From Escherichia coli (GTDB lineage: Bacteria; Pseudomonadota; Gammaproteobacteria; Enterobacterales; Enterobacteriaceae), in the NCBI RefSeq assembly GCF_046105845.1, contig NZ_CP151004.1: 64,000 nt of DNA. The stretch is one strand, 5' to 3'. Within the stretch, counting starts at the first letter, position 1. Every line of letters begins with the position of its first letter. Under the pieces are notes generated by a model. It was not told the DNA's origin, made no database searches, and worked only from the letters and a program-made list of their open reading frames with translations. Position numbers and translations under genes: made by a program. Positions 54,014-55,920 of the stretch are shown in pieces.

Positions 54014-54277
54014 TCAGGCGCGGATTTGTTGTGATGTGGTTGTGCTCTGGCAGATGGCAACGTGTGCGACGTCCACCAGTTTATTTAACTGACTAAACAG
54101 TAAGTCGACCGACCGTGGGCTGGCAACGGTCAATTCGATATTTATATTTTGTGCATCGCTGGCGGCGGCCATATTCATTGAGCAGACGTGGAAACCACGA
54201 TGACGCACCACGCGTAAAACACGTTCTAAGGTTTCCGGATTGAAGCGAGCCGATACATTGACCTGATGTTGCATCAT
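54014..54277 (-). CDS. ilvM: Acetolactate synthase II small (regulatory) subunit
   Basis: 87-aa [42 protein letters not shown]...; overlaps the ilvG stop by 4 nt. Confidence 0.9.
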
Positions 54278-55920
54278 GATAATTTCTCCAACATTTCTGA
54301 ATTACTGGCACCTGGCGGCACCAGCGGCCAGACGTTCTCAAGTTCGTCGATTGAGACATGAAGCAGGTATGGCCCATCACTGTTCAGCATGGTGTCGAGT
54401 GCCGCTTCAACCTGGTCTTTACGGGTGATGTGTTGGCCAGGGATGCCGAAGGCGCTGGCTAACATGAGGAAATCGGGGTTATCGGTAAGGGTGGTTTCGC
54501 TGTATCGTTCCTGGAAAAACAGTTGCTGCCATTGTCGAACCATCCCTAACCGTTGGTTATCGAGTAAGACGATTTTCAACGGTAACTGCTTGCGTTTTAC
54601 GGTGCCCAGCTCTTGCACATTCATCATGAAAGAGCCGTCACCGGAGATACAGACGACGGTATCGTTCGGTCGCGCTACTTGCGCGCCAACCGCCGCAGGT
54701 AAACCAAAACCCATGGTGCCTAAGCCGCTGGAGGTGATGAAATTTTCCGGGCGAGTGTGGGTGATGTGCTGGGCAGCCCACATCTGGTGCTGCCCCACAT
54801 CTGTGGTCACGACGCAATCCGCAGGTTTACGATCCGACAGTTGTTTTAACAACAACGGCGCGTAGATAGCGTCACCGGGATGGTCGTAGCGCCAGGCATG
54901 TTCATCACGCAGCTGCGCGCAGTATTGCTGCCAGTCATCGATATTTAACGGCTGCTGTAATGCTGGTAACAGAGCATTTAAATCACCCTGTAATGCCACA
55001 TGTGCCTGACGCAGCTTGTTCATTTCTGCCGGATCGATATCCATATGGATAACGCTGGCGTGTGGTGCGAAGGTGTTCAGTTTGCCGGTCACCCGGTCAT
55101 CAAAACGTGCGCCCACGGCGATCAGTAGATCGCACTCCTGCACTGCGAAGTTCGCCGCTTTGGTGCCGTGCATTCCCAGCATGCCCAGATAGTACGGATA
55201 ATCCGCTTCAACTGCGCCCAGCCCTTTCAGCGTGCAGGTGACAGGCATTTTTGTAGCAGCGAGAAATTCACGCAGAGCGGGAACTGCCTGCGCCATGCCC
55301 ACGCCACCGCCAACGTACAGCATCGGTTTTTGCGCCTTTGCCAGCATCTGGCGCGCTTGCTCGACTTCGGCATGTGGGAAATTCACTTCGTTTTCAACGG
55401 TGGTGAACCATGGTTCCAGATCGCCGCTGGCTAACTGGATATCTTTTGGGATATCGACCAGAACCGGACCAGGACGACCTGAGCTGGCAACGTCGAATGC
55501 TTCAGCCATGATGCGCGGCAACTCTTCCAGCGACTGCACCAGAAAGCTGTGCTTGGTACAGGCTAATGACAATCCCAGTACATCCACTTCCTGAAATGCG
55601 TCAGTGCCGATAAACGGTGCGGATACCTGACCGGTGATGGCAACAACAGGGATGGAATCTAACAGCGCGTCCGCAAGCCCGGTTATCAGGTTGGTTGCAC
55701 CTGGACCAGACGTGGCGATACATACGCCAGTTTTGCCGGTAGCACGGGCATAACCGATAGCCGCCATTGCTGCACCTTGCTCGTGTCGGCACAGCAAGTG
55801 TTCCACGCCACCGTCATACAATGCATCGTAAACCGGCATAATTGCGCCACCCGGATAACCGAAAACGGTGTTCACACCCTGTGCCCGCAACGCATGTACC
55901 ACCCACTGTGCGCCATTCAT
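54274..55920 (-). CDS. ilvG: Acetolactate synthase II large subunit, intact and full length
   Basis: Single uninterrupted 548-aa [66 protein letters not shown]... Confidence 0.9.

Follow-up and report, generated by a model that had tools for sequence, protein, structure and literature searches.

An uninterrupted ilvG in an ilvLXGMEDA operon of wild-type layout in Escherichia coli

The ilvG reading frame and its product

The window, meaning the whole 64,000-nucleotide stretch of Escherichia coli DNA analysed here, carries a leader region, ilvG and further ilv genes on the minus strand. The features below are listed in the direction of transcription.

56060..56158, minus strand: ilvL, the 32-aa leader peptide of ilvLXGMEDA, rich in Ile/Val/Leu (100% nucleotide identity to K-12 ilvL)
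56004..56035, minus strand: attenuator terminator (RNA fold, identical to K-12)
55923..55973, minus strand: ilvX, small ORF of 16 aa (100% nucleotide identity to K-12 ilvX, b4669)
54274..55920, minus strand: ilvG, intact catalytic (large) subunit of AHAS II, 548 aa (ORF, NF006524, TPP_enzyme_N/M/C)
54941..54944, minus strand: site of the 2-bp deletion of K-12, undeleted in the window (MAFFT alignment and junction counts)
54014..54277, minus strand: ilvM, AHAS II small subunit, 87 aa, ACT domain (ORF, NF008362, PF13710 ACT_5)
53065-53994, minus strand: ilvE, intact and full-length, 0 amino-acid differences from K-12
51150-53000, minus strand: ilvD, intact and full-length, 2 amino-acid differences from K-12
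49603-51147, minus strand: ilvA, intact and full-length, 3 amino-acid differences from K-12

In the six-frame list of open reading frames, 54274..55920 is a single frame of 548 aa with an ATG start and no internal stops. Read directly, the sequence has its ATG at 55920-55918 and ends in TGA at 54276-54274, within the string ATGATG with which ilvM begins, and the gene is 1647 bases long. An earlier sequence-only reading had described the frame as unbroken from the ATG at 55920 to the stop at 54274 and as overlapping ilvM by ATGA. The ORF list and the sequence both bear out the frame, and re-translation for a frameshift or premature stop found none along the continuous 548 aa. The overlap is exact as well, with ilvM starting at 54277 and its ATG sharing the four bases at 54277-54274 with the ilvG TGA. 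The K-12 annotation also gives a 4-base overlap between the two genes.

The product aligns over its residues 1-547 to positions 1-547 of the 548 in the NCBIfam equivalog model NF006524, 'acetolactate synthase 2 catalytic subunit', with 1074.2 bits against a cut-off of 738. The Pfam domains PF02776 (residues 1-115), PF00205 (186-321) and PF02775 (374-522) all lie far above their gathering scores, with E-values of 1e-41 to 3.5e-56 for these TPP_enzyme_N/M/C domains. The full-length family match, the TPP-enzyme domains and the near-identity of the gene across E. coli genomes together argue that the frame does not arise by chance. Residues E47, F109, Q110, M250, R276, V375 and W464 are all present in the sequence, and the pattern GDG...N is found at 427-455. 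We take Glu47 to be catalytic, GDG...N to be the ThDP-Mg motif, M250, R276 and W464 to govern substrate specificity and Q110 to be known from AHAS II biochemistry. Roles for V375 and F109 in AHAS II are attributed to Steinmetz et al. 2010, as cited in PMC5727371.

The closest solved structure is IlvB, the large subunit of E. coli AHAS I (PDB 6LPI; E 3.8e-162 over residues 2-544), and no E. coli AHAS II (IlvG) chain was among the matches of the structure search with IlvG. IlvB shares with IlvG the ThDP/FAD-dependent AHAS fold family. It is nevertheless a different isozyme, valine-sensitive and partnered by IlvN (PMC5727371). The IlvM encoded in the window scores 133.9 bits against the equivalog NF008362 (cut-off 68), and shows no amino-acid difference from K-12 IlvM.

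Operon context, leader and attenuator

From the ilvL ATG to the ilvG ATG, a span that includes the leader, the attenuator and ilvX, the window equals K-12 base for base. The ilvL peptide reads MTALLRVISLVVISVVVIIIPPCGAALGRGKA, and the ilvX stop sits 2 nt upstream of the ilvG ATG. The attenuator consists of a G+C-rich hairpin at 56012-56035 followed by 8 U at 56004-56011. Its fold has a free energy of -23.3 kcal/mol (z -3.98), and none of 200 shuffled sequences was equally stable. A consensus terminator scan of the minus strand did not flag the attenuator, but direct folding does show the hairpin. The Rfam model RF02744 ('Rev39_5p_UTR') matches 55940-56229 on the minus strand with 157 bits, and the attenuator falls within the match. 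This family was described from soft-rot Enterobacteriaceae (Rfam). Since the match covers the ilvL leader and attenuator, the family corresponds to the ilvG leader. Downstream in the same operon, ilvE, ilvD and ilvA (49603..53994) contain no internal stops. With ilvL, attenuator and ilvX as in K-12 on one side and intact ilvE, ilvD and ilvA on the other, ilvG belongs to the attenuator-controlled ilvLXGMEDA operon.

The intergenic region between yifB and ilvG differs from K-12 by 13 substitutions, all upstream of ilvL. The four nearest, at -52, -58, -59 and -65 from the ilvL ATG (56190-56225, minus strand), probably fall in the ilv promoter region and change TTGTAC to TTGTGC, TTTACA to TTCGCA and AACC to AATC relative to K-12. 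All four alleles are common to the strains AST215, SCU-102 and AST240, with K-12 as the outlier.

The K-12 frameshift base by base

The ilvG locus of K-12 shares its neighbours, leader, attenuator, ilvX and IlvM protein with the window. In MG1655, however, ilvG (b4488) is annotated as a 1645-base pseudogene, 2 bp shorter than the gene in the window. The sequence-only reading had held that K-12 ilvG is a pseudogene by frameshift, with the gene in the window intact, and had proposed aligning the two. A MAFFT alignment of the window, K-12 and AST215 confirms this at the level of single bases and locates the frameshift, with 2 bp missing from K-12 at gene positions 977-978 (54943-54944 in the window) as the sole indel in the gene. 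The deleted pair is AT or TA, its placement being ambiguous inside AAATATC, which becomes AAATC in K-12. At the deletion site the window and AST215 read CCGTTAAATATCGATGAC and K-12 reads CCGTTAAATCAATGAC. Through the deletion, codon 328 of K-12 becomes an in-frame TGA, and the product is left with 327 residues ending in ...PLNQ; a premature UGA introduced by the K-12 ilvG frameshift has been described previously (PMC8605374). The codons of the window at the corresponding site read N-I-D, as in natural alleles.

Besides the indel, ilvG differs from K-12 by 57 substitutions (3.5%) spread along the gene. The affected codons comprise 49 synonymous and 8 non-synonymous differences, a ratio that points to purifying selection on ilvG. 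Compared with the frame-repaired K-12 protein, the amino-acid differences are C146S, T180N, A227V, N328D, H333Y, S342A, A387T and H494P.

Distribution of intact and deleted ilvG

Intact ilvG is the rule in natural E. coli and the K-12 deletion is a peculiarity of a laboratory lineage. The ilvG DNA of the window is 95-99.9% identical to annotated ilvG in 5,425 of 5,426 complete E. coli genomes. The deleted state was counted with a 51-base probe centred on the K-12 deletion, with which an undeleted gene shares an exact word of at most 27 bases. This probe matches 343 of the 5,426 genomes, and in 340 the match is 100%. A spread sample of 40 matched rows contained 39 at 100%, and judged from name and source these appear to be laboratory strains of K-12 or derived from it; among them are MG1655, BW25113, C600, JM83, NEB 5-alpha and transconjugant recipients. 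The corresponding undeleted probe, taken from the window, matches at least 4,717 of the 5,426 genomes, and about 366 genomes fall in neither count because nearby SNPs break the 28-base seed. Intact ilvG has likewise been reported in B strains and others (PMC3446290; PMC2808357).

The nearest counterpart is the IlvG of AST215 (WP_077519738.1), which is 100% identical to the window in protein and differs by 1 synonymous nucleotide in DNA. Across the five closest genomes the ilvG DNA is 99.2-99.9% identical to the window and nothing of substance differs. The natural genes in AST215, SCU-102, PCN033 and 042 encode 548 aa, and the gene is intact too in B strains such as REL606. Natural isolates have ilvG in the same position of ilvLXGMEDA, with the same ATGA overlap with ilvM. 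Public assemblies record the exact IlvG protein in 148 blocks. An intact ilvG is already known, as the textbook wild type of a familiar operon.

Mosaic ancestry of the window

The blocks flanking ilvG have nearest relatives different from those of ilvG itself. When each third of the window was searched by megablast against the 5,426 complete E. coli genomes, none reached 99% across a whole third, and the best identity over any 20-kb third was 98.5-98.9%. Eight contigs, read from among those that encode an identical IlvG, share 97.9-99.0% identity with the window. The low best identity first raised the idea of an unusual lineage or species, which was set aside once a block-wise comparison had revealed a recombination mosaic of E. 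coli alleles. Between 39,001 and 58,500, comparison with three of the nearest genomes resolves a mosaic of 2-5 kb blocks, in which single blocks match one or another E. coli isolate at 99.6-99.9% identity. The block at 52,001-57,500 covers the 3' part of ilvD, ilvE, ilvM, ilvG, the leader and most of yifB; about 9 of its 5,500 sites are different in AST215. SCU-102 departs from the block at 46,501-48,500 at 3 sites out of 2,000, and AST240 from that at 48,001-50,500 at about 10 out of 2,500. Such mosaicism of ordinary E. coli alleles accounts for the fact that no complete genome exceeds 98.5-98.9% in any third. The expectation of the sequence-only reading that the other differences from K-12 reflect natural variation holds up, given blocks nearly identical to various natural isolates and shared alleles upstream of the ilv genes.

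We tentatively suggest, at somewhat less than even probability, that the host belongs to an E. coli lineage without a close relative among the 5,426 complete RefSeq genomes and that the 5.5-kb segment from the 3' part of ilvD through ilvE, ilvM and ilvG to yifB was recently imported from an AST215-like lineage by homologous recombination. If so, the ilv operon in the window would have been pieced together by recombination and not inherited vertically as a unit.

The host could alternatively be a Shigella or a close Escherichia lineage missing from the E. coli collection, which we consider improbable. The collection searched consisted of complete E. coli genomes without Shigella records, and such an origin would fit both the ceiling of 98.5-98.9% over any third and the finding that none of the eight contigs with an identical IlvG exceeds 99.0% over the flanks. 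Mosaicism, though, already accounts for the low best identity, and the identity of 95-99% to essentially all 5,425 genomes lies within the range of the species. Shigella genomes are expected to carry IS elements and pseudogenes, unlike the window, where neither was seen among 52 genes. A Shigella or Escherichia origin would alter the label of the host and leave the reading of ilvG as it is.

Predicted function and valine resistance

IlvG and IlvM would together form AHAS II, with a ThDP/FAD-type catalytic subunit and an ACT-domain small subunit. The enzyme is expected to join either two molecules of pyruvate, for the valine and leucine branch, or pyruvate and 2-ketobutyrate, for the isoleucine branch. 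AHAS II is insensitive to valine (PMC5727371), whereas AHAS I and III are inhibited by it, and K-12 carries the frameshift (PMC7066862). Escape from valine feedback inhibition would allow isoleucine precursors to be made while excess valine blocks AHAS I and III, and the host would be valine-resistant. Intact ilvG in B strains confers valine resistance (PMC3446290), and MG1655 with a restored ilvG frame grows on valine (PMC8605374). In K-12 the frameshift exerts polarity on the genes that follow, according to Parekh & Hatfield 1997, as cited in PMC8605374. As the polar frameshift is absent here, ilvE, ilvD and ilvA would be spared the polarity seen in K-12. Expression of the operon would depend on ribosome stalling at the Ile, Val and Leu codons of ilvL, which may decide whether the attenuator hairpin forms. 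Because of this literature on AHAS II and valine and on polarity in K-12, the host is predicted to make AHAS II, to resist valine and to express ilvEDA without polarity. We regard AHAS II expression and valine resistance as well-founded predictions.

An intact frame might still encode an inactive or poorly expressed product through a missense or promoter change, leaving the host valine-sensitive. The eight amino-acid differences from frame-repaired K-12 and the four substitutions in the probable promoter region leave some room for this, yet we judge it very unlikely. The identical protein in AST215 and in the 148 public-assembly blocks marks a maintained natural allele, and the excess of synonymous over non-synonymous codons (49 against 8) indicates purifying selection. 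Six of the eight amino-acid differences are common to at least SCU-102 or AST240, the active-site and ThDP-motif residues are intact, and the HMM score far exceeds the equivalog cut-off. Three natural strains also carry the promoter-proximal alleles, and K-12 is the outlier.

The host in relation to K-12

The sequence-only reading had concluded from the intact ilvG that the host is not of K-12 lineage. The conclusion stands on divergence and structure, but the argument from the frame alone does not suffice, because repaired ilvG of 548 aa exists in a K-12 background. The 4.64-Mb genome of FELIX_MS508 (NZ_CP148116.1) carries such a gene of 548 aa at 250-1896 of its extracted locus, and is one of three gapped matches to the K-12 junction probe. 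Apart from a 2-bp insertion of AT and four substitutions lying close together, presumably the result of engineering, its ilvG equals that of K-12. The repair lies a few bases from the original deletion, and codons 327-328 encode other residues than in the window. Laboratory evolution of MG1655 repeatedly restores the frame as well, by 1-bp deletions, yielding valine-resistant lines (PMC8605374). Repaired K-12 derivatives share with the window the 548-aa frame and the expected valine resistance. Their genes are nonetheless K-12 sequence besides the repair, whereas ilvG in the window is 3.5% diverged.

Reversed, the window runs colinear with MG1655 3,942,480-4,006,552 over its 64 kb, and the 62,917 bases that align contain 1,558 mismatches, which gives an identity of about 97.5%. 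Each of the 52 K-12 genes in the comparison has an intact equivalent here, 93.4-100% identical in nucleotide sequence. None of three marks of K-12 lineage is present: the 2-bp ilvG deletion is absent, overall identity to MG1655 lies below the 99.9% expected across core genes, and the local structure differs. The structural differences are three, namely an extra SAM hydroxide adenosyltransferase (SAM_HAT) gene, the absence of the yifN region and the absence of the REP element between ilvA and ilvY. The 57 substitutions in ilvG, the window-wide identity of about 97.5% and these three differences lead us to place the host outside K-12. A K-12 derivative with repaired ilvG, whether a spontaneous valine-resistant revertant or engineered, has precedents in FELIX_MS508 and in the 1-bp restorations of MG1655, but is refuted for practical purposes by 57 further ilvG positions scattered through the gene, by a whole 64 kb merely about 97.5% identical to K-12, by the extra SAM_HAT gene and the missing yifN region and ilvA-ilvY REP, and by restored codons N-I-D that match natural alleles and not the repaired K-12 genome.

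Almost certainly, the window comes from a natural E. coli outside K-12 and carries the ilvLXGMEDA operon in its wild-type form, and nothing in the sequence contradicts this reading. The defects of K-12 (the ilvG frameshift, valine sensitivity and ilvEDA polarity) should not be assumed for the host, and the differences of the window from K-12 are to be treated as ordinary strain variation and recombination rather than as anomalies. The value of these observations is one of annotation housekeeping, and they answer no open question.

Local differences and tRNA genes

Several local features of the window were noted beyond ilvG. The SAM_HAT gene lies at 6295-7197 on the plus strand between yigE and uvrD and encodes 300 aa with PF01887 and PF20257 and a signal-peptide-like N-terminus. 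In K-12 the gap between yigE and uvrD is 128 bp long and lacks this gene. In the interval between ppiC and rep (46693-46748), the window lacks the K-12 region of about 830 bp with the yifN pseudogene. The region is missing in SCU-102, AST240 and CP099267 too, whereas AST215 and several other isolates have an intact gene for a 149-aa toxin of the PemK/MazF family there. Between the convergent ilvA and ilvY (49603-49609), the 51-bp REP-like element of K-12 is absent and the ilvY TAA overlaps the complement of the ilvA TAG. The window ilvY encodes 296 aa, one fewer than in K-12, and starts with TTG in place of GTG. The gene ends one codon earlier than in K-12 because the REP insert is absent. The annotations of AST215, SCU-102 and AST240 show the ilvA/ilvY layout of the window.

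Three further genes depart from K-12 in length or sequence. The hemX gene (18328-19527, plus strand) encodes 399 aa against 393 in K-12, a difference made by an 18-nt indel. In yigG (3313-3693, plus strand) the 5' end fails to align with K-12, and the product has 19 amino-acid differences. The aslB gene (23162-24397, minus strand) is unusually diverged, with 93.4% nucleotide identity to K-12 and 21 amino-acid differences. The tRNA genes are all on the minus strand, with proM-leuT-hisR-argX at 24543-24979, trpT-aspT at 59448-59608 and gltU at 62970-63045 inside the rrnC operon. Their order and orientation are those of K-12, and the end of the window falls within rrsC.
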